From the sequence record NC_100331.1: a DNA stretch of 64,000 bases; one strand, written 5' to 3'. The translations under genes were made by a program, and so were the position numbers. Below, in pieces: positions 7,924 through 45,490 of the stretch; the stretch's first letter is position 1, and each line of letters begins with the position of its first letter. The notes under the pieces were generated by a model, which was not told the DNA's origin, made no database searches, and saw nothing but the letters and a program-made list of their open reading frames with translations. This stretch comes from Escherichia phage vB_EcoS_HASG4.

Positions 7924-8334
7924 ATGACTACTCCAACTCAGTGGACTGATGAACTGTTCGAAAAAATGTCTTCCGAATATGTTGCTCGTATGGAGCAATT
8001 CCCAGAGGATGAACGTCCGGGTGTTAGCATGGAAATTGTTAGCGAAATTGCCCAGGAAAATGGTGTAACTCCGAACGGTTTTCGTATGAAGCTGACTAAA
8101 GCAGGTTTGTATATTAAGAAAGCTGCTGGTTCTACTTCTAAATCTAGCGCATCTACTGGAGAAAAAGCTTCCGGTGGTTCTCGTACCTCCAAAGCTCAAG
8201 CCCATGCCGATCTTCGTTCAGCATTCTCTGATGCTGGCCTAGCACCAGATTTTCTGGATGATGCAATTATCGACAAACTGACCGGTAAAGCGGCTGCTCA
8301 TCTGGCAGAAGCAATCCGAGCTATCACTAAGTAA
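7924..8334 (+). CDS. hypothetical protein with host-optimal codon usage (probably highly expressed)
   Basis: Intact ORF rich in ggt/tct/gct/cgt/ctg codons, unlike the AT-rich neighbours; Ser/Ala-rich linker. Confidence 0.5.
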   Translation: MTTPTQWTDELFEKMSSEYVARMEQFPEDERPGVSMEIVSEIAQENGVTPNGFRMKLTKAGLYIKKAAGSTSKSSASTGEKASGGSRTSKAQAHADLRSAFSDAGLAPDFLDDAIIDKLTGKAAAHLAEAIRAITK

Positions 8335-10357: not shown

Positions 10358-10407
10358 TACATAACCCTTTGCTACCCATCTACCATATCGGAATTATAAA
10401 GTGGTTA

Positions 10408-10436
10408 TTGACATTTTCGCCGCTTAGGTATATACT
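10408..10436 (+). promoter_or_regulatory. consensus sigma70 promoter
   Basis: TTGACA (10408-10413), 17-nt spacer, TATACT (10431-10436). Confidence 0.55.
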
Positions 10437-10500
10437 ATTATCATTCAGTTGAGGGATAGAAAGTTATGGCGAGGGTAAGCAAAGTTAGTTAAAATTGTAG

Positions 10501-10556
10501 TTGCTAAATGCTTAAATACTTGCTATAATATTTATATAAATTGATAAGGAAGAAAT
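10501..10556 (+). promoter_or_regulatory. strong early promoter (T5-like family, extended -10)
   Basis: TTGCTA-N17-TGcTATAAT (10524-10529), then ATTTATATAAATTGATAAGGAAG. Confidence 0.55.
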
Positions 10557-10559
10557 TTG

Positions 10560-11339
10560 ATGAAAATCGAAATTCCAACACAATGTCCCTCTTGTGGTTC
10601 TAAGCTAGATCTTGTCAACGGACAATTATTCTGTCGTAATAAGTCCAACTGTCCAGCGCAATCAAGCAAGTTAATTGAGAACTTCTGTTCAAAAATGAAG
10701 TTAAAGGGCTTTGGCCCAAAAACTATTGAGAAGCTGGAGCTGACGAAGATTTCAGAACTATTTTACCTAACCGAAGAAGATTTGGTTAGAGCCGTGGGTA
10801 GCAAGGTTGCCGCTAAGTTAATTAGCGAATTAAATACTAAAGTTCGCGGAGACATTGACTTTGGTTCAGTTCTCGGTTCTTTAGGAATCCCTCTAATTGG
10901 AGAAGTTGCAGCAAAGAAACTATCCCAAAATTGCACTAGCTTCCATGATGTGAAGGCTGACGGCAAGGCTGGAGAAAATTACAAAGCCTGGCTAAATTCC
11001 CCACAAGGCAAGGATGTTATTGAACTACCGTGGAAATTTTCAACTGGTGTTAAGGGCACTAAAGCTGACGTCATCATTACAGATGAATTAGTTGCCCAGC
11101 CAAATGGAATCGCGGTATGTATTACCGGATCTTTGCAAGATTTTGCAAATCGAACGGATGCAACAAACTATTTAGAAGGTCTAGGATATACGGTTAAGAA
11201 ATCCGTTACCAAAGACGTCAAATACCTAATCTGTGAGGATGAATCGAAGCGTTCTTCCTCATCTTATAAGAAAGCCGAAACGAATGGGATAGAAATCCTG
11301 TCGATTAAAGAACTATTGGAGAAAAATAATAATGTCTAA
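10560..11339 (+). CDS. NAD-dependent DNA ligase, C-terminal subunit (zinc finger, HhH, BRCT-like)
   Basis: CPSCGSKLDLVNGQLFCRNKSNCPAQ is the LigA C4 zinc finger; downstream G-hairpin-G-like segments; ATG at 10560 with AAGGAAG SD. Confidence 0.75.
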   Translation: MKIEIPTQCPSCGSKLDLVNGQLFCRNKSNCPAQSSKLIENFCSKMKLKGFGPKTIEKLELTKISELFYLTEEDLVRAVGSKVAAKLISELNTKVRGDIDFGSVLGSLGIPLIGEVAAKKLSQNCTSFHDVKADGKAGENYKAWLNSPQGKDVIELPWKFSTGVKGTKADVIITDELVAQPNGIAVCITGSLQDFANRTDATNYLEGLGYTVKKSVTKDVKYLICEDESKRSSSSYKKAETNGIEILSIKELLEKNNNV

Positions 11340-12099
11340 ACTGAACTGGAACGTAGAAGGTGTAACCGAGTCTCTGAAAGCAAAAGCCACTGCTCTGGGT
11401 GTTTCTGTAATCTCTCAAGAACAAGTAGCTGCTATCGCTGCTGAACTGGCTGCTGAAACCGGCAAAGATGTTACTGCTCGCTCTGTTGGCTCTAAACTGC
11501 GTAAAGAAGGTTTTGAAGTACAAAAAGCTAACGAAGTACAGAAATCTCCGTGGACTCCTGAGCAGGAAGCTGAACTGGTTGATTTCCTGAATGCTCATGC
11601 TGGTCAGTATACCTATGCTGAAATCGCTGCTGCTGTAGCTGGTGGTCAGTTCGGTGCTAAACAGGTACAGGGTAAGATCCTGAGTCTGGAAATGACCGCT
11701 TCTGTTAAGCCAACCGAAAAAGCTGCTGCTGTTCGTTCCTTCACTCCGGATGAAGAAACTGATTTTGTTAATCAGGTTGTTGCTGGTGCTACTATTGAAG
11801 CTATCGCTGCTCACTTCGGTCGTAATATCAAGCAGATCCGTGGTAAAGCTCTGAGCCTGCTTCGTGAAGGTCGTATCGCTGCTATGCCGGTACAGGAAAC
11901 CTCAAGTGCTAAAACTCGTGAAGATCTGTTAGAAGGTCTGGATCTGGTTAACATGACTGTTGCTGAGATCGCTGAGAAAACTGGTAAATCTGAGCGCGGT
12001 GTTAAATCTATGCTGTCTCGTCGTGGTCTGGTTGCTAAGGACTATGATGGTGCCGCTAAGCGTGCTAAACTGGATGCAAAAGCTGCGGCTGCTGAATAA
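11332..12099 (+). CDS. internally repeated HTH-like protein with host-optimal codon usage
   Basis: Four repeats of an xTxAEIAxxxGxxxxxVxxKxLSxxxxG-type unit; strong bias to ctg/gct/ggt/cgt codons; followed by a terminator. Confidence 0.55.
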   Translation: MSKLNWNVEGVTESLKAKATALGVSVISQEQVAAIAAELAAETGKDVTARSVGSKLRKEGFEVQKANEVQKSPWTPEQEAELVDFLNAHAGQYTYAEIAAAVAGGQFGAKQVQGKILSLEMTASVKPTEKAAAVRSFTPDEETDFVNQVVAGATIEAIAAHFGRNIKQIRGKALSLLREGRIAAMPVQETSSAKTREDLLEGLDLVNMTVAEIAEKTGKSERGVKSMLSRRGLVAKDYDGAAKRAKLDAKAAAAE

Positions 12100-12116
12100 T
12101 CTGGTAAATTAAACCT

Positions 12117-12150
12117 AAGGGGAGGGGGCTATGCTCCTTCCCCTTTTTGC
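12117..12150 (+). terminator. rho-independent terminator-like hairpin
   Basis: AAGGGGAGGGGG-ctatgc-TCCTTCCCCTT followed by TTTTG; overlaps the track's 12131 start, so that start is unlikely. Confidence 0.5.
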
Positions 12151-12181
12151 ATTTAGAAGGCACGAAAGCGTGCAAAGGAGA

Positions 12182-13654
12182 ATGACCTTGTTTAACGTGC
12201 AAGCTGTAGTGTTGAAGATGCTTCTAGCTTCCGAACAGAAGCAAATAGCATTGGAAACATTCTCAAAACTGCATAAAGATCATTTTAATGACGCTTTCTC
12301 CTCAATTTACCAAGCCGTCCAGAATTATTATAAAAAATATAACACAATGCCGTCCATTGACGCACTTATGCTTGAAGCTAATAGGAACGCCCGCCTTTCT
12401 CAAGCTCTAGTCGTCTTAGCTAACACTCAAATTCCAGAAGTGAGCATGGAACAGGCACTTGAAGTCCTAGAGGCCGAATATACACAGGATTTATTCCTGA
12501 AGCTTCTAGAAACAGACGTGCTTCAAGATTTAACAATGCTGGATCAGGGAGAAATTCTCAACCGAGTTGCCTCCCTTCACTTAAAATTAGAAGAGAAAGT
12601 AACGAATACTGGAAAAGTATTCAACGCAGATAACATGCGTATTTTCCAGAGAGAAGAAGATACCAAACTGAATTTAATCGCTCTTGGTATTTGTAATGAG
12701 TTCGACGCTCAAATTGGTTTAGCTCGCACAGAAACGTTACTGCTTGGTGGTTGGCGTGGTACTGGTAAATCCATTATCTGTTCAAACATACAGGTTCAGC
12801 AATATTTGAATGGAGATATTGCTCCATACTTCTCAATTGAGATGAAAGAACATGAAGTATTTAGACGTAATCTAGCCATGTTAGCTGGTGTATCAGCACT
12901 AGCAATGCGTAATAATACTCTAGAAGGTGCAGCTCTGTTGAGATTAGCCAGAACTAGAGCTAGGATGTTTAACGGTGGTGAAGAGCTTTTCGATAACTTT
13001 GTTAAACAGTACACAATGGCTAAGATGAGTGATTTCTACGATATGGAGAGTAAGCTAATAGAGGGATATGAACTACATACTCCTATGATTATCGTTTATG
13101 ACCCTGAACTGTCCATTACAACAGTTGATGTAGAATTAAATAAATTAGTTGCTAGATATGGTGATAAAGTTACAGTAGCTTTACTGGACTATATTAACCA
13201 AACCCGACTTCCAGATTCTAAAACCATTGATATGTATGACTGGAAAGAACAGATGGTTGTTAGCTCGTCTTTCAAATCCATCTGCCAGAAACATAACGTG
13301 GCTGGTGTAGCTCCTTACCAGATCGATCAAGATGGTAGAACACGTATGTCAAAGGGGATTCTTGATTCCGCAGACATGGCTGCTAATCTTAATGCTGCAA
13401 AAGCCGATAATGGTCAAGGTGCTATTATGTTTGACTTCGTTAAGACTCGTTCTTCTGATAGCGTGAAGTTTATGCCTAAGATGAACTGGGAAACCTTGCG
13501 GATGGATAACACTACCAACCTAGCAATGGAAGATATATCTCAAATGGAAGCTGAGTTCGTTATCCCTATTGAGAAGGATAAGCCGGCTCAACCTAAACGT
13601 GCTAAGAAAGACAAAACTGAAAATTCAACAGGTGAACAGGCCAGCGATATATGA
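12182..13654 (+). CDS. DnaB-like replicative DNA helicase
   Basis: Walker A GGWRGTGKS; H2-like motif VALLDYINQ; RecA-like C-terminal domain. Start uncertain (ATG 12182 or 12218). Confidence 0.65.
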   Translation: MTLFNVQAVVLKMLLASEQKQIALETFSKLHKDHFNDAFSSIYQAVQNYYKKYNTMPSIDALMLEANRNARLSQALVVLANTQIPEVSMEQALEVLEAEYTQDLFLKLLETDVLQDLTMLDQGEILNRVASLHLKLEEKVTNTGKVFNADNMRIFQREEDTKLNLIALGICNEFDAQIGLARTETLLLGGWRGTGKSIICSNIQVQQYLNGDIAPYFSIEMKEHEVFRRNLAMLAGVSALAMRNNTLEGAALLRLARTRARMFNGGEELFDNFVKQYTMAKMSDFYDMESKLIEGYELHTPMIIVYDPELSITTVDVELNKLVARYGDKVTVALLDYINQTRLPDSKTIDMYDWKEQMVVSSSFKSICQKHNVAGVAPYQIDQDGRTRMSKGILDSADMAANLNAAKADNGQGAIMFDFVKTRSSDSVKFMPKMNWETLRMDNTTNLAMEDISQMEAEFVIPIEKDKPAQPKRAKKDKTENSTGEQASDI

Positions 13655-14603: not shown

Positions 14604-17171
14604 TTGAAAATCGCAGTAGTTGATAAAGCTCTAAATAACACTCGTTACGATAAACATTTCCAGCTATACGGCGAGGAAGTTGATGTATTCCATATGTGTA
14701 ACGAGAAGTTATCTGGTCGTTTGCTTAAAAAGCACATTACTATTGGAACACCAGAAAACCCATTTGATCCGAATGATTATGATTTTGTTATACTAGTAGG
14801 TGCTGAACCTTTCCTGTATTTCGCAGGTAAGAAAGGCATTGGTGACTATACTGGTAAACGTGTAGAGTATAATGGATATGCTAACTGGATTGCGAGTATC
14901 AGCCCAGCCCAGCTACACTTTAAGCCTGAAATGAAACCAGTTTTCGATGCAACAGTAGAGAATATCCACGATATTATCAATGGTCGTGAGAAGATTGCAA
15001 AAGCTGGTGATTACCGTCCTATTACTGACCCTGACGAGGCGGAAGAATATATCAAGATGGTGTATAATATGGTTATCGGACCTGTCGCATTCGACTCCGA
15101 AACCTCAGCACTATACTGTCGAGATGGTTATCTGCTTGGTGTTTCTATGTCTCACCAAGAATATCAGGGTGTATATATCGATTCTGATTGTCTCACAGAG
15201 GTTGCAGTATATTATCTCCAGAAAATTCTGGATAGTGAAAATCACATTATTGTTTTTCACAACCTGAAGTTTGATATGCACTTTTATAAGTACCATTTGG
15301 GACTTACCTTTGATAAAGCACATAAAGAACGTAGGCTCCATGATACTATGTTGCAGCATTATGTTCTAGATGAACGTCGTGGTACTCATGGCTTGAAATC
15401 TCTAGCAATGAAGTATACCGATATGGGTGACTATGACTTTGAACTAGATAAGTTCAAGGAGGATTACTGCAAAGCACATAAAATCAAGAAGGAAGATTTC
15501 ACCTATGATTTAATTCCGTTTGATATTATGTGGCCATATGCTGCGAAAGATACAGATGCTACCATACGTTTGCACAACTTCTTTTTACCAAAAATTGAGA
15601 AGAATGAAAAACTTTGTAGTCTGTACTACGATGTTTTGATGCCTGGTTGCGTATTCTTGCAACGTGTTGAGGATCGTGGAGTACCTATTTCTATTGATCG
15701 TTTGAAAGAAGCTCAGTATCAGTTAACTCATAACCTGAATAAAGCCCGTGAGAAACTGTACACTTATCCAGAAGTTAAACAGCTAGAACAAGATCAGAAT
15801 GAAGCATTTAACCCAAACTCTGTTAAGCAACTTCGTGTTCTTCTGTTCGATTATGTTGGTTTGACTCCAACTGGTAAATTAACAGATACTGGTGCAGATT
15901 CTACGGATGCAGAAGCTCTGAATGAACTGGCTACGCAGCATCCAATTGCTAAAACTCTGTTAGAGATTCGTAAGCTGACTAAGCTAATCTCTACTTATGT
16001 TGAGAAGATTCTTCTGAGTATTGATGCGGATGGTTGCATTCGTACTGGTTTCCACGAACACATGACTACTTCTGGTCGTCTAAGTTCTTCTGGTAAACTG
16101 AACCTGCAACAGTTACCTCGTGATGAATCTATTATTAAGGGTTGTGTAGTTGCACCACCTGGATACCGTGTAATCGCATGGGACTTAACAACTGCGGAAG
16201 TTTATTATGCTGCTGTTCTATCTGGTGATAGAAATATGCAACAGGTATTTATCAACATGAGAAATGAACCTGATAAATACCCTGACTTCCACTCTAACAT
16301 CGCACACATGGTATTTAAGCTCCAATGCGAACCTCGTGATGTTAAAAAGTTATTTCCAGCTCTGCGTCAAGCAGCTAAAGCAATCACCTTTGGTATTCTG
16401 TATGGTTCTGGCCCAGCTAAAGTAGCTCATTCTGTTAACGAAGCTCTTCTGGAACAGGCTGCTAAGACAGGCGAACCGTTTGTAGAGTGTACTGTTGCAG
16501 ATGCTAAAGAGTACATTGAAACTTACTTCGGTCAGTTCCCGCAGCTTAAGCGTTGGATTGATAAGTGCCACGATCAGATCAAGAATCATGGATTTATCTA
16601 TAGTCACTTTGGTCGTAAACGTCGTCTGCATAATATCCACTCCGAAGACCGTGGTGTTCAGGGTGAAGAAATCCGTTCTGGATTTAACGCAATCATTCAG
16701 TCTGCTTCTTCTGATAGCCTCCTTTTAGGTGCGGTAGATGCAGATAATGAGATCATTTCTCTTGGCTTAGAACAAGAGATGAAGATTGTTATGCTGGTTC
16801 ATGACTCCGTAGTTGCTATTGTTCGTGAGGATTTGATCGACCAATACAATGAAATCCTGATTCGTAATATTCAGAAAGACCGTGGTATCAGTATTCCTGG
16901 CTGTCCGATTGGTATTGATTCAGATTCTGAAGCTGGAGGTTCTCGTGACTATTCTTGTGGTAAGATGAAGAAACAGCACCCATCAATCGCTTGTATTGAT
17001 GATGATGAATATACTCGTTACGTTAAAGAAATGCTACTTGACGCAGAGTTCGAGTATAAGAAACTAGCTGCAATGGATAAAGAGCATCCAGATCATAGCA
17101 AATACAAGGATGATAAGTTTATTGCTGTATGTAAAGATCTGGATAACGTGAAAAGGATTCTTGGTGCTTAA
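14604..17171 (+). CDS. DNA polymerase, family A, with 3'-5' exonuclease domain
   Basis: Exo motifs FDSETSALY, HNLKFDMHF, YAAKDTDA; polymerase motifs RQAAKAITFGILYGSG and LVHDSVV; TTG start with GAGGAG SD; 855 aa, the size I recall for T5 polymerase. Confidence 0.9.
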   Translation: MKIAVVDKALNNTRYDKHFQLYGEEVDVFHMCNEKLSGRLLKKHITIGTPENPFDPNDYDFVILVGAEPFLYFAGKKGIGDYTGKRVEYNGYANWIASISPAQLHFKPEMKPVFDATVENIHDIINGREKIAKAGDYRPITDPDEAEEYIKMVYNMVIGPVAFDSETSALYCRDGYLLGVSMSHQEYQGVYIDSDCLTEVAVYYLQKILDSENHIIVFHNLKFDMHFYKYHLGLTFDKAHKERRLHDTMLQHYVLDERRGTHGLKSLAMKYTDMGDYDFELDKFKEDYCKAHKIKKEDFTYDLIPFDIMWPYAAKDTDATIRLHNFFLPKIEKNEKLCSLYYDVLMPGCVFLQRVEDRGVPISIDRLKEAQYQLTHNLNKAREKLYTYPEVKQLEQDQNEAFNPNSVKQLRVLLFDYVGLTPTGKLTDTGADSTDAEALNELATQHPIAKTLLEIRKLTKLISTYVEKILLSIDADGCIRTGFHEHMTTSGRLSSSGKLNLQQLPRDESIIKGCVVAPPGYRVIAWDLTTAEVYYAAVLSGDRNMQQVFINMRNEPDKYPDFHSNIAHMVFKLQCEPRDVKKLFPALRQAAKAITFGILYGSGPAKVAHSVNEALLEQAAKTGEPFVECTVADAKEYIETYFGQFPQLKRWIDKCHDQIKNHGFIYSHFGRKRRLHNIHSEDRGVQGEEIRSGFNAIIQSASSDSLLLGAVDADNEIISLGLEQEMKIVMLVHDSVVAIVREDLIDQYNEILIRNIQKDRGISIPGCPIGIDSDSEAGGSRDYSCGKMKKQHPSIACIDDDEYTRYVKEMLLDAEFEYKKLAAMDKEHPDHSKYKDDKFIAVCKDLDNVKRILGA

Positions 17172-19230: not shown

Positions 19231-19515
19231 ATGCTTACCGAGCCTGATGCTCACCAATTGTTGGTCGGTTCCTCATTCATTTTGAATGAATCAACAATAG
19301 TTGATAATCCAAATAAATTGTCTAATAGACAACTGGCAGAATATCTAGGAATTTTAAGTCTACGAAATTATGCCGAATACAAGTTTACAAACGATCCTAG
19401 TTTGGACATACAATATGTTCCAGTATGGATACCACGTTTAGTAATCGACACTAACCCACTAATCGCAATTAACAAATCGAAATTAATCTTTAAAGAGGAA
19501 ATAAAATATGGCTAA
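19231..19515 (+). CDS. hypothetical protein
   Basis: ORF between promoter and the next gene; no motif. Confidence 0.3.
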   Translation: MLTEPDAHQLLVGSSFILNESTIVDNPNKLSNRQLAEYLGILSLRNYAEYKFTNDPSLDIQYVPVWIPRLVIDTNPLIAINKSKLIFKEEIKYG

Positions 19516-20281
19516 GTCTTGGGGCGAAACTACTGGCGGTTCTAACGATAAAATCGAATTCCTGAAGTTCAACAACGGTATCACTCGTGTTCGTATCGTT
19601 TCTGGTGTTCTTCCACGTTATGTATATTGGCTGACTAATAAAGAGGGTAGCGTAGCTCCTTTCGAATGTCTCCGTTTTAACCGTGACAAAGAGAGCTTTG
19701 TTCGTGGTAAAGCTGATCCGGTTCATGAGATGGGCTTCTTTGAGAAAGAGCTGGATAAAGATGGTAATCGTGTTCCGCTGAAACCGAAGAAAAACTATAT
19801 CGCCTTTGTTATTGACCGTTCTGATAACAAACTGAAAGTAATGGAAGTCAAGGCTACTATTCTGAAAGGCATCCAGTCTATCATGAAGCAGTTGAACCTG
19901 GCAACTCCGTTTGATATTGATATTTCTATCGAGAAAAAAGGTAAAGGTTTCGATACTGAGTATGATGTACAGCAGATTGCTGCTATGCAGTTCCAGATTA
20001 AGCTGCAAGATCCTAACAGTGCGGAATCTAAGCAATATGCTGCGGATGTAGATCTGATCGGTGAAGCTATGTGTGATGAAGATGGCGACATCATTAAGTT
20101 CGAAAAAGTTCCTTCTCTGGAACAAACCTATCCGGTTCCTACCTATGAAGAGCAGAAAGAAGCAATTCTAGCCTTCATGGAAGGTCGTGAGAATAAAGAT
20201 GATGATGCCAAATCTGGTAATAGCAATGCAGGTTCCCAGAAAGGTATTGACTCAGAAGCTGCAAGCGATCTGGACGACTAA
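19508..20281 (+). CDS. abundant early protein with acidic C-terminal tail; possible ssDNA-binding protein
   Basis: Host-optimal codon usage; C-terminus GIDSEAASDLDD is acidic as in SSB tails; followed by a strong terminator. Function is inferred, not shown. Confidence 0.4.
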   Translation: MAKSWGETTGGSNDKIEFLKFNNGITRVRIVSGVLPRYVYWLTNKEGSVAPFECLRFNRDKESFVRGKADPVHEMGFFEKELDKDGNRVPLKPKKNYIAFVIDRSDNKLKVMEVKATILKGIQSIMKQLNLATPFDIDISIEKKGKGFDTEYDVQQIAAMQFQIKLQDPNSAESKQYAADVDLIGEAMCDEDGDIIKFEKVPSLEQTYPVPTYEEQKEAILAFMEGRENKDDDAKSGNSNAGSQKGIDSEAASDLDD

Positions 20282-20317: not shown

Positions 20318-21295
20318 ATGAGAATATTATTTAGTGCTGATCATCATATCAAACTAGGACAAGATAAAGTTCCAAAGGAATGGCAGAAGCGTCGTTTCCT
20401 GATGCTAGGAGAACGGTTAAATGATATATTCCATAATCATAACTGTGATCTTCATATTGCTGGTGGTGATATTCTTGATGTTGCCGACCCGTCGTCAGAA
20501 GAAATAGAACTGCTTGAACAGTTCATGTCAAGACTTGACCACCCAGGTAAAATCTTTACTGGAAATCATGAAATGTTAACTAAAACGATTTCATGTCTAT
20601 ATCATTATGCAGGAGTTATTAATAAGGTAACGAGTGGTAAGTGGGAAGTAATTACCAAACCATATCGTTCCCCTGAATTTGATATTGTTCCGTATGATGA
20701 GATCCATAAATCCAAATGGAAACCGTCTGAATCAAAACTATGTTTCACGCATGTTCGTGGTGAAATCCCTCCACATGTAAAACCAGAAATTGATCTAACT
20801 AAGTATAACTGTTATGATACTGTAATTGCTGGCGATTTACATTCTTATACTAATAGCCAGACTATCGGATCTACTAGACTTCTCTACCCAGGGTCTCCAT
20901 TAACTACAACGTTCCATAGAGAACGCACAAAAGGTACAAATGGTTGCTTTATCGTTGATACCGACACATTAAAAGTAGAATGGATTGAACTAGGTGATTT
21001 ACCACAACTGATTCGTAAAACAATCGGAGCCGGTGAAGAGATGGAACCTAGTGATTATGATCGTGTAGTCTATGAAGTTACTGGTGACGTTGTTCAATTA
21101 AAGTCTATCAAAGACTCTGATTTATTAGATAAGAAGATTAACCATCGAGTTACTAAAGACGCTAAGTTAAATCTTGTTGATCTTGATATGTTAGGTGAAC
21201 TTGAACTTTACTTCCGTGAAGTCGAGAAGCTATCTCAAGGCGACATTGATAGAATCTTGGCTAGAGCTGCGAAATATGTCAAAGATTACAATTAA
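20318..21295 (+). CDS. SbcD/Mre11-like metallophosphoesterase nuclease subunit
   Basis: Calcineurin-like motifs DHH (FSADHHI), GD (AGGDILD), GNHE (FTGNHEM), GDLHS. Confidence 0.8.
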   Translation: MRILFSADHHIKLGQDKVPKEWQKRRFLMLGERLNDIFHNHNCDLHIAGGDILDVADPSSEEIELLEQFMSRLDHPGKIFTGNHEMLTKTISCLYHYAGVINKVTSGKWEVITKPYRSPEFDIVPYDEIHKSKWKPSESKLCFTHVRGEIPPHVKPEIDLTKYNCYDTVIAGDLHSYTNSQTIGSTRLLYPGSPLTTTFHRERTKGTNGCFIVDTDTLKVEWIELGDLPQLIRKTIGAGEEMEPSDYDRVVYEVTGDVVQLKSIKDSDLLDKKINHRVTKDAKLNLVDLDMLGELELYFREVEKLSQGDIDRILARAAKYVKDYN

Positions 21296-23114
21296 GACAC
21301 TAAAATTTAGTAACGTTATGTCTTACGGTAAGGACATCGTAATTCATTTCGATAAGAATCCAGTTACTCAACTAATTGGTGGCAATGGGCTAGGGAAATC
21401 CACCATCGCTACTGTTATCGAGGAATTGTTTTATAACAAGAACTCACGTGGTATTAAGAAGGATGCTCTATTCTCTTGGAATGCCCCTAAGAAAGAATAT
21501 GATATGCACGCTTATTTCTCGAAAGATGATGATGAGTATGAGCTGCATAAAGTAGTTAAGTCAACTGCTAAAGTAACGTTGATTAAGAATGGGGAAGATA
21601 TTAGTGGACATACGGCAACCCAAACATACAAGATGATTGAAGAGATTATGGGTGGTGACTTTCAAACATTCACCAAACTGATTTATCAATCAGTGGGTTC
21701 CAACCTAGATTTTCTAAAAGCAACAGATGCAACACGTAAGGCTTTTCTTGTTAATTTGTTCAATCAAGAACAATACAAAGAAATGTCGGAAACTGTTAAG
21801 GCTGACCGTAAAGAAATAGCAAATACCTTAAATAATTTGCAGGGCCAAATGGCTGTAATTACGAAAATTCTTAATGGAAAAAATAATCTAGGAACTTTGC
21901 AGGAACCTGTAGAAATACCGGAGTTTGATGAAGAGCCATTAGCACAAGAACTTACTGAATCGAAAATTAAGGCGGCATTAGCCAAGTCTCAAGAGGCTAA
22001 TATTACTAAGTTGCGTAATTTGGACAAAGCTGTACAAGTTGCCGAACAATCTTTCGAACCTTTCAAAAATTTGCCCGCGCCCACCGACCAAAATGAAGAG
22101 ATCTCAAGTGTTACACGTGACCTAACGATTGTGACCTCACGTGCGAGCGAAGTTAAGAAACGTTATCAGAAGTTCAAGCAAGAGGCTTCAAATACTGAAT
22201 GCCCTACTTGCGGTACTCATCTGGATACAACTGCTGCTCAAAAAGCAATGGATATGGCTAGAATAGAATATGATCCTTTGTTCAAAGAGAAGCAATCTCT
22301 TGAAGCTAAGCTAGAACAGTTGAAGAAAGAACAACTTGAGTACGTTGCGTATACTAGAGCAAAGGATGCTTTGGATAAAGCAGTGGTAGCTAGAGACGAG
22401 TTCAAAAATTCAATGAGTGATGCTTCTTTTGAAGAACTCAATGTGCAAATCCTACAGGTGCAAATCCGACAATTAGAACAGGAAATCGCTGATGGCCGCT
22501 CTAAGGTTGCAATTGCTAAAGAGCATAATGCAAATGTCGAATTAGCCAATGCAAAATATAAAGCGAAACTAGAACAGATTGAGAAAGCTGAGGCAGAAAT
22601 GTCTGAGATTACTTCCAAACTGGATGAGGTATCAGAAGCTGTTGCTGATCTCGATATTCTGATTGCTGCTTTGAAAAATCTGGTGGGATATAAACTAGAG
22701 CATAGTGTGAAAGTATTTGAAGAACTAATTAATAAATACCTTTCTATTATGACTGGTGGTAAATTTGCACTTGGATTTGAACTTGATGAAACAAAATTAC
22801 AAGTAGTAATCTTCAATGATGGAAACCGTACCAGTATGGAGAATTGCTCTACTGGTCAGCAAAGTCGAATCAACTTAGCAACTCTGTTAGCTATTCGAAT
22901 GCTACTAACATCTATTAGTAAAGTTAATATTAATCTTCTATTCCTTGATGAAGTAATTAGCTTTATTGATACAAAAGGACTTGATACTCTAGTTGAATTA
23001 TTAAATGAGGAAGAAAGCCTAAATTCTATCATTGTTTCTCACGGGCATACGCATCCATTAGCCCATAAGATTACTGTTAAAAAAGATGCAGAAGGATTTT
23101 CCTACTTAGAATAA
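21276..23114 (+). CDS. SbcC/Rad50-like ATPase subunit
   Basis: Walker A GGNGLGKST; long coiled coil with a CPTCG zinc hook; D-loop/Walker B LLFLDEVISFID. Start set to the ATG at 21276, overlapping the upstream gene by 20 nt. Confidence 0.8.
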   Translation: MSKITIKTLKFSNVMSYGKDIVIHFDKNPVTQLIGGNGLGKSTIATVIEELFYNKNSRGIKKDALFSWNAPKKEYDMHAYFSKDDDEYELHKVVKSTAKVTLIKNGEDISGHTATQTYKMIEEIMGGDFQTFTKLIYQSVGSNLDFLKATDATRKAFLVNLFNQEQYKEMSETVKADRKEIANTLNNLQGQMAVITKILNGKNNLGTLQEPVEIPEFDEEPLAQELTESKIKAALAKSQEANITKLRNLDKAVQVAEQSFEPFKNLPAPTDQNEEISSVTRDLTIVTSRASEVKKRYQKFKQEASNTECPTCGTHLDTTAAQKAMDMARIEYDPLFKEKQSLEAKLEQLKKEQLEYVAYTRAKDALDKAVVARDEFKNSMSDASFEELNVQILQVQIRQLEQEIADGRSKVAIAKEHNANVELANAKYKAKLEQIEKAEAEMSEITSKLDEVSEAVADLDILIAALKNLVGYKLEHSVKVFEELINKYLSIMTGGKFALGFELDETKLQVVIFNDGNRTSMENCSTGQQSRINLATLLAIRMLLTSISKVNINLLFLDEVISFIDTKGLDTLVELLNEEESLNSIIVSHGHTHPLAHKITVKKDAEGFSYLE

Positions 23115-44113: not shown

Positions 44114-45490
44114 TTAAGCGGTAGCGTAAGCACCGGATACAACACCATTACTAAAGTAACGTTGCAGGTTAACACGCTGAGTAACGTAATACGCATCACG
44201 CTGTTTACCAGCTTGGCGCTCACGTTCAACAGTGACAGCGCGCTGACGTGGCATTACGAAGTTATCTTTATAAACGATAACTGCGAACTCTTTCTCAGCC
44301 GCTTTAGCTGGGAAGTACTCAGAAACTACAACCGGCAGACCATAAATACGACCAACCTGACCTTGCAGTTTAACAGCATCGTTACCAACCTGTGCAACAT
44401 CCTGCCATTCTTCATCTTCCAGAAGGTCATAGTAAGCATCCATAGATACAATCAGTACCAGTTTGCTCAGTTTCAGACCATGACGACCCAGTTTACGACG
44501 CAGTTTAGAGATAGTTTTAGCAGTTACTAGAACAGAACCATCAGCTTTAGCTTCGGTAGTAACTTTAGCACCATCATCTTCAGCCAGTTTCAACAGACCT
44601 TTCGGCTTACCAGTACCATCACCAGTCATGAAAGCTTCTTCGATAGAAACAGCGTGTGCTTCGATCAGACGCTTACGTAGCAGTGGCAGCAGGGAGAAGA
44701 TTGCATCTTCTTCAGTTTCATCAGTAATGAAGGACTTAGCAGCCAGTTTGTAGGTTTTAAAACTAATTTCAGTTAATGTACCTTTAACTTCGTTACCAAC
44801 AGTAGCATCAGTACCGTAGGAACCAGCATCTACCCAAGTAGCTTTTCCAGCTTCAGGTTCAACCAGCATAGTAAGAATTTTGCTGGACATTGGCAGTTCA
44901 TCGAACAGTGCACCAACTACTAACTCTTTCTGCAGGTCACGAAGGATACGGGTAGAGAAAATAGTTTCGTAGTTTTCACTGGAAACCTGTACAGAGGAAG
45001 AAGTATTAACAGCTTTAACGTGGGCCTTACCATGTTCAGTTTCAAATACGTCCTTCTCCATCATATAAGACAAGAGAACTAGTTTTTCAACTTCATCTTC
45101 AAAAGCTTCCTGAGTACCATATAGTGCTTTAGCTACGCTATCACCGACGAATGAGCGGCCTTCACGAGCTGCTAGCAGAGATTTAATTTCATCCTGAAGA
45201 CCAACAATAGTTTCCTGCTGCTTTTCTACAGTCTGTGCAAACAGTTCTGCGCTCTTTTTAGATTTTTCATCCAGGGACTTAACCAGTTCCAGAGCTTGTT
45301 CCAGTTTCTGACGATCTTCGCCAACTGCTTTAGAAACCAAGTCATTCATACGAGCCAGTTCTTTTTCTTCCTGCTCTTTACGCATACGTTCAGCTTCCTG
45401 AGCTTTCTGAGCAGCGGTCAGACCTTCCAGAGATTTAGCCAGATCACCCAGACCAAGTTCTTCTTTCAGCTTATTAATATCAATAGTCAT
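44114..45490 (-). CDS. major capsid protein precursor (HK97-fold)
   Basis: 458 aa; N-terminal coiled-coil scaffold-like delta domain (MTIDINKLKEELG...ELARMND) followed by a capsid core; GGAG SD; adjacent to protease. Confidence 0.8.
   Translation of the reverse strand: MTIDINKLKEELGLGDLAKSLEGLTAAQKAQEAERMRKEQEEKELARMNDLVSKAVGEDRQKLEQALELVKSLDEKSKKSAELFAQTVEKQQETIVGLQDEIKSLLAAREGRSFVGDSVAKALYGTQEAFEDEVEKLVLLSYMMEKDVFETEHGKAHVKAVNTSSSVQVSSENYETIFSTRILRDLQKELVVGALFDELPMSSKILTMLVEPEAGKATWVDAGSYGTDATVGNEVKGTLTEISFKTYKLAAKSFITDETEEDAIFSLLPLLRKRLIEAHAVSIEEAFMTGDGTGKPKGLLKLAEDDGAKVTTEAKADGSVLVTAKTISKLRRKLGRHGLKLSKLVLIVSMDAYYDLLEDEEWQDVAQVGNDAVKLQGQVGRIYGLPVVVSEYFPAKAAEKEFAVIVYKDNFVMPRQRAVTVERERQAGKQRDAYYVTQRVNLQRYFSNGVVSGAYATA

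Follow-up and report, generated by a model that had tools for sequence, protein, structure and literature searches.

Four predicted helix-turn-helix modules in D5, a codon-adapted early protein of a T5-like bacteriophage

Introduction

The histone-like protein p6 of the Bacillus phage phi29 is a highly abundant early binder of double-stranded DNA that both replication and the early-to-late transcription switch require, much like D5 of bacteriophage T5; it acts by assembling with the phage genome into a nucleoprotein complex (PMC4974454). No relationship of sequence or fold was detected between D5 and p6, nor between D5 and HU/IHF, H-NS or Fis, and D5 differs from p6 as a 27-kDa monomer with four predicted helix-turn-helix (HTH) modules in each chain. 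With respect to architecture, counterparts are found in the Myb/SANT/homeodomain-like arrays of c-Myb (R1R2R3), SNAPc4, Cdc5/Cef1 and the bipartite domain of Tc3 transposase, to which D5 shows 13-21% identity. The modelled three-helix fold of D5 could be superposed on Myb repeats, whereas a Pfam search with Myb_DNA-binding (PF00249) reached 17.6 bits on residues 71-100, below the cut-off of 24.4. Unlike these arrays, D5 is a phage protein with units of approximately 60 residues and conserved linkers, and it lacks the regularly spaced tryptophans of Myb repeats, having only W6 and W74 at the starts of units. The DNA-binding domain of GcrA from Caulobacter (PDB 5yiu) is a single domain of 49 residues as opposed to an array; the GcrA Pfam family was absent from the Pfam matches of D5 at E ≤ 1, and homology to it is not established.

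For T5 or its close relatives, DNA binding by D5, its requirement for replication and late transcription, its part in shutoff, its monomeric state, its toxicity, and its high levels of mRNA and protein have all been reported. The T5 reference record lists D5 as a 'DNA-binding protein' needed for DNA replication and late transcription, with a role in the shutoff of expression, and the classical paper on it, as cited in PMC12630848, is that of McCorquodale et al. (1979, J Virol 29:322). The 'phage-encoded DNA binding protein' of the DRT4 paper was considered as a further account of D5 and ruled out; its subject is T5 ORF55.

Because D5 is a textbook T5 gene, the biological claim examined here is not new; its biology is already known. 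The value of the case is methodological: in a preliminary description, a reader without tools deduced from codons and internal repeats alone that the protein is abundant, multivalent and DNA-binding, an interpretation that is supported below, and also rightly chose D3 and D11, the region's two other DNA-binding proteins made in bulk.

The D5 gene and its transcription unit

The window analysed is a stretch of 64,000 nucleotides of Escherichia phage vB_EcoS_HASG4 (NC_100331.1). An open reading frame on its (+) strand at 11332-12099 begins with ATG and encodes 255 residues plus a stop, confirming the protein as first described. By sequence, the source is a T5-like phage (Tequintavirus) and the gene is its D5, the long-known D5 gene of phage T5 (T5.118, YP_006946.1) in a sister phage. 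Protein alignment gave 254 of 255 identical residues over equal lengths; the sole substitution, S25 in the window protein for D25 in T5, would not be expected to change function. A profile search matched residues 1-253 to PHROG 323, 'transcriptional regulator, D5-like' (E=1.4e-71). Location agrees with this full-length similarity, as the gene occupies the interval between ligB and the replicative helicase gene (D6) in the early replication module; T5 D5 lies between the same two genes, with an identical upstream promoter region and the same terminator context, and the ligB-D5-helicase order is found also in Vibrio phage Chester and Proteus phage PM135.

Homologues were present in 901 phage records, 889 of which cover at least 80% of D5, and the host genera listed are those of T5-like phages; where annotated, the homologues go by the names D5, D5-like or (late gene) transcription factor. 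A search of 1.84 billion representatives, in a library that carries neither names nor genomic context, returned 492 matches at E ≤ 1e-3, and the best 50 or so of these are full-length proteins of 233-262 residues. Named sources of homologues are phages, except for partial fragments labelled Enterococcus.

D5 appears to lie in a short unit comprising strong early promoters, ligB, D5 and a terminator. A consensus scan located a sigma-70 promoter, TTGACA-17-TATACT (11 of 12 matches), at 10408-10436 (+) and a second, TTGCTA-17-TATAAT with a TG extension, at 10501-10529 (+), equivalent to the T5 early promoters P-K28b and P-K28a, respectively; the interval 10358-10562 is 100% identical to that annotated with both promoters in T5. 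The upstream gene of the unit, ligB (10560-11339, +), codes for subunit B of the NAD-dependent DNA ligase; its stop and the start of D5 overlap by 8 nt. A Shine-Dalgarno sequence for D5, GGAG, can be read at 11318-11321 (+), 10 nt upstream of the ATG. Directly 3' of D5 is an intrinsic terminator (12117-12145, +) with a 13-bp G+C-rich stem, a 3-nt loop and a T-run, predicted at -25.5 kcal/mol; the annotations of MK373799 and phage BB1 also record it as a terminator. In RNA-seq of the Tequintavirus Bas33, TPM increases approximately 5-fold between ligA and ligB and another 2-fold between ligB and the D5 position, and then drops approximately 20-fold at the junction equivalent to the D5 terminator. 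As a strong terminator closes the unit, the downstream helicase gene would be expressed far less.

Codon usage and abundance

The preliminary description had D5 using host-preferred codons unlike most of its neighbors, and the codon adaptation index (CAI) of each gene bears this out. ORFs were called directly from the window, since the annotation coordinates of MK373799 shift after approximately 21.3 kb owing to an indel, and 72 greedily called ORFs were scored with E. coli relative-adaptiveness weights (Sharp and Li, 1987). The CAI of D5, 0.721, was the highest of the 72, the median for the window being 0.256, and lay at z=+16.6 relative to its own amino acid sequence resampled with window-wide synonymous usage; its Nc was 30.4. 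Leucine is encoded by CTG in 17 of 19 instances (12% elsewhere), isoleucine by ATC in 9 of 10 (20% elsewhere) and alanine by GCT in 39 of 44, while rare codons account for none of the 254 codons (8.4% elsewhere). The adjoining genes on the same strand are unbiased, with the helicase at 0.254 and ligB at only 0.236; the bias of D5 is therefore gene-specific rather than operon-wide.

Comparable values were reached only by the major capsid gene (44114-45490; CAI 0.612, rank 2) and by the two genes that had been named as sharing the codon bias of D5, only the capsid gene ranking between them and D5. The first, at 19508-20281 (+; CAI 0.55, rank 3), encodes the 257-residue single-strand DNA-binding protein D11, identical to its T5 counterpart at 254 of 257 residues and matching the SSB family PHROG 1607 (E=7e-106); a search of the PDB by sequence returned no relative of it. 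The second, at 7924-8334 (+; CAI 0.537, rank 4), encodes the 136-residue 'DNA binding protein' D3, identical to T5 D3 at 135 of 136 residues. With a DNA-binding protein and an SSB as its companions, the codon bias of D5 thus picks out the early region's three stoichiometric DNA-binding proteins. By the host-independent Nc, the three top places among the 37 genes of the Vibrio phage Chester locus go to D5, D3 and D11, in that order, and D5 is first of 30 in Proteus phage PM135; the recurrence of the bias in a distant Vibrio T5-like phage is a small addition of the present analysis.

Codons preferred by the host could instead record the origin of a gene, whether by recent acquisition from an enterobacterial host, local base composition or strand bias, rather than its expression. 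The GC3 of D5, however, is phage-like at 0.31, similar to the rest of the phage and far below that of typical E. coli genes. Moreover, the unbiased ligB and helicase genes lie on the same strand, the bias targets the codon subset of highly expressed genes (CTG, ATC, GCT, CGT and GGT), and D5 is the most biased gene by Nc in the distant Vibrio and Proteus phages as well. The distribution of homologues, with its phage sources, and the RNA and protein measurements described below likewise speak against an origin effect, which is effectively refuted and to which almost no probability is assigned.

In the portion of the Bas33 RNA-seq table covered here, which lies outside the pre-early genes, the gene at the D5 position (bas33_0040, 768 nt) had the highest TPM among phage genes at 20 min (22,868/16,641), compared with 5,136/3,009 for the major capsid, 10,850 for ligB, 10,586 for D3 and 4,996 for D11; the D5, D3 and D11 rows were assigned by gene length and order, not by sequence, since product names for D5, D3, a single-stranded DNA-binding protein or the major capsid were not found in the supplement. 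Label-free proteomics of phage phiR2-01 placed D5 in the top ('major') spectral-count class. Within the extent of these sources, the early claim of a very abundant protein is upheld.

Architecture of D5

The protein had also been described as four similar HTH-like units of about 35 residues. The number stands but the length does not: the units span 59-68 residues with a period of approximately 60, and about 35 residues correspond only to the conserved HTH core of each. D5 contains 17% alanine, and it might be argued that repeats in so helix-prone a composition are illusory and that the protein is one helical domain; indeed, the single sequence showed modest self-similarity, with a best off-diagonal local score of 56 (z=3.4) that 1 of 200 shuffles also reached, and the self-comparison mode of hhalign gave no off-diagonal matches. 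A 40-sequence family alignment was split into the four units, which were compared profile against profile together with 40 column-shuffled controls that retain composition. All six unit pairs scored above the maximum of the controls, with P=6.5e-9 for U2-U3 over 54-56 columns, 3.2e-5 for U1-U3, 3.4e-5 for U1-U4, 2e-4 for U3-U4, 6e-4 for U1-U2 and 0.011 for U2-U4, and the repeats thus hold up statistically. Given also that the structural model consists of three separate three-helix bundles and a two-helix HTH (unit 4), that each type of unit resembles independent HTH families, and that relatives with 5-10 copies of the unit exist, a single helical domain is highly improbable.

The AlphaFold2 model (pLDDT 92, pTM 0.49), on which a model of the Vibrio D5 superposes with TM 0.71-0.74, presents D5 as four probable Myb/homeodomain-like HTH modules followed by a conserved C-terminal helix; a pTM of 0.49 does not establish how the modules are arranged relative to one another. 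Unit 1 (11332-11535, +; residues 1-68) has predicted helices at 11-22, 29-43 and 49-58, with RSVGSKLRK in helix 3. Those of unit 2 (11536-11730, +; residues 69-133) lie at 76-88, 95-101 and 109-118, with KQVQGKILSL in helix 3, and those of unit 3 (11731-11907, +; residues 134-192) at 139-150, 155-162 and 166-178, with KQIRGKALSLLRE in helix 3. Unit 4 (11908-12048, +; residues 193-239) is without a predicted first helix and has helices at 210-217 and 221-231, its helix 3 carrying ERGVKSMLSRRG. Short conserved linkers join the modules. The basic, Ala/Lys-rich C-terminal segment (12049-12096, +; residues 240-255, GAAKRAKLDAKAAAAE) is helical at 240-254 in the model; in the family alignment, D237 and G240 are invariant, and A241, R244, K246 and D248 nearly so.

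Searches of the PDB by sequence found no related chain, the best being a weak match of unit 1 to a designed engrailed homeodomain (E=6e-4), and Foldseek with the whole chain gave no PDB match at E ≤ 1e-3. On units 1-3 the Pfam families HTH_23 (at residues 151-184 in unit 3), HTH_28, Myb and HTH_33 all remained under their cut-offs. Pfam PF26822, precomputed on D5 and D3 homologues, was not reproduced by the Pfam search made here and was left out of the evidence.

The net charge of helix 3 is +3, +1, +4 and +4 in units 1-4, respectively. The protein as a whole has a pI of 6.8, with K+R and D+E both at 34, and such an overall lack of basic charge is atypical of a protein that only coats DNA. From the missing first helix of unit 4 and the weak charge of helix 3 in unit 2, it would seem that not all of the units need bind DNA.

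The N-terminal domain of D3 is probably a single unit of the D5 type. Comparison of the D3 and D5 profiles gave a probability of 87% (P=3.9e-6), identifying the D3 N-terminus as homologous to D5 unit 1, and the D3 model has helices at 9-24, 28-45 and 50-59; this too is a small addition of the present analysis. Plain BLASTP of D3 against D5 was not significant (E=0.13), the link being made by profile comparison only.

Proposed role of D5

The T5 identity, the four-unit architecture, the expression signals and the codon bias, which two distant relatives share, are established here, and in combination with the earlier reports they make it very probable that D5 is a near-stoichiometric early protein, a monomer of four HTH modules that coats phage double-stranded DNA for replication and for the early-to-late switch. 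D5 would be needed in amounts close to stoichiometric with phage DNA, and its expression would be maximised at every level, through the strong early promoters P-K28b and P-K28a, its own Shine-Dalgarno sequence, preferred codons and a strong terminator. Each module would insert its basic helix 3 into the major groove, such that a single molecule would grip several successive grooves and numerous molecules would coat the DNA. The coat would then sustain phage DNA replication and reprogram the template, turning early transcription off and enabling late transcription. We infer the coating itself, the placement of all four modules on DNA, and coating as the cause of the effects on replication and transcription; cooperative, non-specific coating is suggested by database annotation. 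The T5 annotation and the four HTH modules thus support the original proposal of a multivalent DNA-binding protein for nucleoid remodelling or transcription control.

D5 could alternatively act mainly as a sequence-specific factor for late-gene transcription, either an activator or an adaptor resembling sigma, in which one or two modules read late promoters and the others contact RNA polymerase. Many records name it 'late gene transcription factor' or 'putative transcription factor D5', the T5 annotation has it needed for late transcription, and residues 204-230 in unit 4 score 28.8 bits with Pfam Sigma70_r4_2 (PF08281), above the cut-off of 25.7. This last match covers only the HTH part of sigma-70 region 4 (profile positions 23-49 of 54); of the other regions, Pfam detected no region 2 and only 20.7 bits for region 3, under its cut-off of 25.3, and hence D5 is not filed as a sigma factor. 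Furthermore, a site-specific regulator rarely needs the top mRNA level and codon adaptation of a genome, exceeding those of the major capsid gene, D5 shares its signature with the bulk proteins D11 and D3, and DNA replication also requires D5 according to the T5 annotation. A mainly site-specific role is accordingly considered unlikely, but transcription-factor and DNA-coating roles are not mutually exclusive.

Sensing of D5 by retrons

A 2026 preprint reported that a type IX retron is triggered by D5, describing an HTH fold and a predicted interaction with msDNA that is supported by remodelling of the retron complex in mass photometry. In that study, D5 was a monomer of 26 kDa and was toxic when expressed alone, and two independent escapers of retron-Kva2 were mutated in D5 and D3, respectively. 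It is tentatively suggested that D5, with four units, and D3, with one unit and a second small domain, are paralogues derived from one HTH module, that together with D11 they form a bulk, phage-specific 'chromatin' set in which the number of modules sets coating, and that the same module is sensed by type IX retrons; a single retron-sensed module in both proteins would explain why escapers are mutated in D5 and D3. A further and less likely possibility is that D5 accompanies the packaged genome in certain T5-like phages, a hint of which is its classing as 'major virion-associated' in phiR2-01. For work on D5 and retrons, it is useful that D5 appears as an array of four modules, not a single HTH, and that D3, mutated in the second escaper, seems to carry the module of D5.

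The D5 escape mutations reported in the preprint are G53D, W74* and G232D. The W74* escaper still formed plaques, which is awkward for an essential D5, unless a mixed population or suppression of the stop accounts for it. All three mutations fall at residues that are nearly invariant in the D5 family alignment: G53D in helix 3 of unit 1, W74* at the start of unit 2, and G232D just past helix 3 of unit 4.

Identity and Genomic Setting of D5

The D5 gene occupies 11332-12099 on the plus strand, where an ATG-initiated ORF encodes 255 aa; its first 8 nt overlap the 3' end of the preceding gene, and a Shine-Dalgarno sequence (GGAG) lies 10 nt 5' of the ATG on the same strand. Across 10500-12700 the sequence matches Escherichia phage vB_EcoS_EASG3 at 100% identity and more than 400 T5-like phages at 95-99%, and this near-identity identifies the window as the early replication region of a Tequintavirus together with its late region. 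The ORF is labeled 'D5 protein', 'DNA-binding protein D5' or 'putative transcription factor' in the matching records. In the T5 reference genome, D5 (T5.118) is located 3' of ligB and of promoters P-K28b and P-K28a, and is annotated as a DNA-binding protein needed for DNA replication and late transcription, with a role in expression shutoff; the classical reference for the protein is McCorquodale et al. With 254 of 255 residues identical to T5 D5, the gene product was judged to be what the preliminary description had taken it for, an abundant multivalent DNA-binding protein; the finding is real, correctly interpreted and already known.

The ligA-ligB interval (205 nt, containing both promoters) is 100% identical to that of T5, and D5 is followed at 12117-12145 by a terminator hairpin with a 13-bp G+C-rich stem and a T-run. 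For the downstream D6 helicase, the annotated ATG (12131) falls within the loop of this hairpin; other in-frame starts are a GTG at 12170 and an ATG at 12182. An indel near 21.3 kb puts the window out of register with the EASG3 record. D13 (SbcC/Rad50-like; 21276-23114) is a single intact 612-aa ORF in the window, as in T5; MK373799, a record that is nearly identical elsewhere, divides it into two CDS, which suggests that this record differs by a frameshift or in its sequencing.

Codon Usage of D5 and Its Companions

The codon adaptation index (CAI) was calculated for 72 non-overlapping ORFs called in the window using E. coli relative-adaptiveness weights (Sharp and Li, 1987), with Wright's Nc serving as a second measure independent of a host reference. 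D5 ranked first of the 72 (CAI 0.721; window median 0.256), 16.6 SD above the value for its own amino acid sequence encoded by window-average synonymous usage, confirming the host-preferred codons proposed for it, and its Nc was 30.4. Since its same-strand neighbors have unremarkable values (ligB, 0.236; helicase, 0.254), the bias cannot be put down to strand or regional composition. Leu is encoded by CTG at 17 of 19 positions (12% elsewhere), Ile by ATC at 9 of 10 (20% elsewhere) and Ala by GCT at 39 of 44, while rare codons account for 0 of 254 (8.4% elsewhere); GC3 is 0.31, similar to the remaining phage genes. The bias reflects selection for those codons that highly expressed host genes favor, and not a host-like composition. 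A 169-aa antisense ORF inside D5 (11305-11814, minus strand) is most likely a by-product of this strong sense-strand bias.

Behind the major capsid gene (CAI 0.612), ranks 3 and 4 were held by 19508-20281 (0.55) and 7924-8334 (0.537), the two genes for which the same bias had been claimed. The first is D11, a single-strand DNA-binding protein 3' of P31A/B (254/257 residues identical to T5 D11), and the second is D3, a 'DNA binding protein' 3' of promoter P-N26 (135/136 identical to T5 D3); the shared bias thus singles out the early region's three DNA-binding proteins. Distant relatives show it too: D5 (48% identity), D3 and D11 rank 1, 2 and 3 by Nc among 37 genes at the Vibrio phage Chester locus, and D5 ranks first of 30 in Proteus phage PM135. 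Two amino acids are exempt from the optimization in D5, D3 and D11, respectively: Asp (GAC 1/9, 1/8 and 6/24) and Tyr (TAC 0/3, 0/2 and 0/7). Both belong to NAY codon boxes, decoded by queuosine-modified tRNAs.

Repeat Architecture and Predicted Structure

Self-alignment of the single D5 sequence gave its best off-diagonal match between residues 73-135 and 137-195 (score 56, z = 3.4, attained in 1 of 200 shuffles), a signal that is suggestive only. From 759 homologues at E<=1e-3, 40 diverse ones (50-80% identity) were aligned, and the alignment was split into units U1 to U4 (1-68, 69-133, 134-192 and 193-255) for profile-profile comparison. P values were 6.5e-9 for U2-U3, 3.2e-5 for U1-U3, 3.4e-5 for U1-U4, 2e-4 for U3-U4, 6e-4 for U1-U2 and 0.011 for U2-U4. 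As all six pairs outscored the best of 40 controls made by shuffling the columns of one unit, the repeat is real. The four similar helix-turn-helix (HTH)-like units described earlier thereby stand, but not their length of about 35 residues: the period is about 60 aa, with about 35 aa representing the conserved core formed by helix 2, the turn and helix 3. The units share the pattern [W/F]-[T/N]-x-[E/D]-E ... G ... [IV]-[AE]-x-IA ... G-[RK]-x ... [KR]-x-[VI]-x-G-K-x-L-S.

An AlphaFold2 model built on the 40-sequence alignment (mean pLDDT 91.8, pTM 0.49) suggests confident modules whose mutual arrangement is less certain. Predicted helices span residues 11-22, 29-43 and 49-58 in U1, 76-88, 95-101 and 109-118 in U2, and 139-150, 155-162 and 166-178 in U3; U4 (210-217 and 221-231) lacks a predicted first helix, and a terminal helix covers 240-254. 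The net charges of the third helices of U1 to U4 are +3, +1, +4 and +4, and D5 overall is neutral (pI 6.8). No sequence relatives were found among PDB chains and Foldseek returned no whole-chain match at E<=1e-3, its weak top matches being tandem HTH or winged-helix arrays throughout; among viral predicted structures, a D5 from a Vibrio phage superposes end to end (TM 0.71-0.74). In agreement with the predicted structure, Pfam Sigma70_r4_2 exceeded its cut-off on U4, and HTH_23, HTH_28, Myb and HTH_33 matched the remaining units under theirs.

The N-terminal domain of D3 (aa 1-72) is homologous to U1 (11332-11535), as supported by profile comparison and matching predicted helices. The single D3 sequence aligned in register with U1 of the D5 profile (P=1.1e-4), and profile against profile placed D3 1-72 on D5 1-69 (probability 87%, P=3.9e-6), a relationship not shown by BLASTP alone. 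The D3 model has helices at 9-24, 28-45 and 50-59, followed by a disordered linker and then another helical domain. An unannotated ORF in PM135 (approximately 16090-16530; MAFEWTDEAF...KLTGKFAQHLADVL), between the annotated helicase gene and the next gene, is a clear D3 homologue.

Abundance and Proposed Function

In the Tequintavirus Bas33 RNA-seq data (20 min; PMC13250531, Dataset S1), where the genes were assigned by length and order and not by sequence, a 768-nt gene adjoining the 780-nt ligB and 972-nt ligA equivalents had TPM values of 22,868 and 16,641, the highest of the phage genes outside the pre-early set in two parts of the table. The corresponding values were 10,850 for ligB, 10,586 for the 411-nt D3 equivalent, 4,996 for the 774-nt D11 equivalent and 5,136 for the major capsid gene. 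Immediately 3' of the D5 equivalent, TPM falls to approximately 860-1,100 (bas33_0039 and the helicase-length bas33_0038), consistent with the terminator. By label-free proteomics of the T5-like Yersinia phage phiR2-01, D5 was the sole non-structural member of the top spectral-count class, beside the major tail, tape-measure, head and portal proteins. Together, the Bas33 transcript levels, within those two parts of the table, and the phiR2-01 spectral counts favor a very abundant protein over one of low abundance. The phiR2-01 orthologue, Gp110, is also listed among 'major virion-associated proteins'; D5 is not a T5 virion protein, and its presence there could mean that this abundant DNA-binding protein was carried over or that it truly associates with packaged DNA.

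The main rival explanation, that D5 is a site-specific late transcription factor, fits this expression level poorly, and may coexist with the DNA-binding reading. The best-supported reading has four parts: a short promoter-ligB-D5-terminator unit would provide bulk production of D5; the protein would bind phage double-stranded DNA via several of its four HTH modules; and the resulting nucleoprotein state would be required both for continued replication and for the early-to-late transcription switch. Purified D5 is reported to bind duplex DNA cooperatively. Functionally, D5 resembles p6 of phi29, without homology.

According to a July 2026 preprint, the type IX retron-Kva2 is naturally triggered by T5 D5 (255 residues), a 26-kDa monomer, toxic alone, that remodels the retron complex (mass photometry) and carries an HTH motif predicted by AlphaFold3 to engage the msDNA stem-loop; the tandem four-unit architecture is not mentioned there. 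One escape phage described there carried D5 G53D, W74*, V149I and G232D, and a second carried D3 E30Q and G85D. In the 40-sequence alignment G53, W74 and G232 are nearly invariant, as are both E30 and G85 of D3.

Breadth of the D5 Family

Searched exhaustively with the D5 profile, 1.84 billion representatives yielded only 492 proteins at E<=1e-3, and among the best 50 or so of these, most were 233-262 aa with end-to-end coverage. In five proteins of 289-692 aa (P0311, P0303, P0309, P0298 and P0245), the D5 profile matched up to nine separate stretches, and their sequences suggest roughly 5-10 D5-type HTH units in tandem; P0298 may also possess a putative sigma-like N-terminal region. Three partial D5/D3 proteins (P0019, P0038 and P0151), 99-100% identical to the T5 versions and deposited as Enterococcus faecalis, are probably phage contamination of assemblies.
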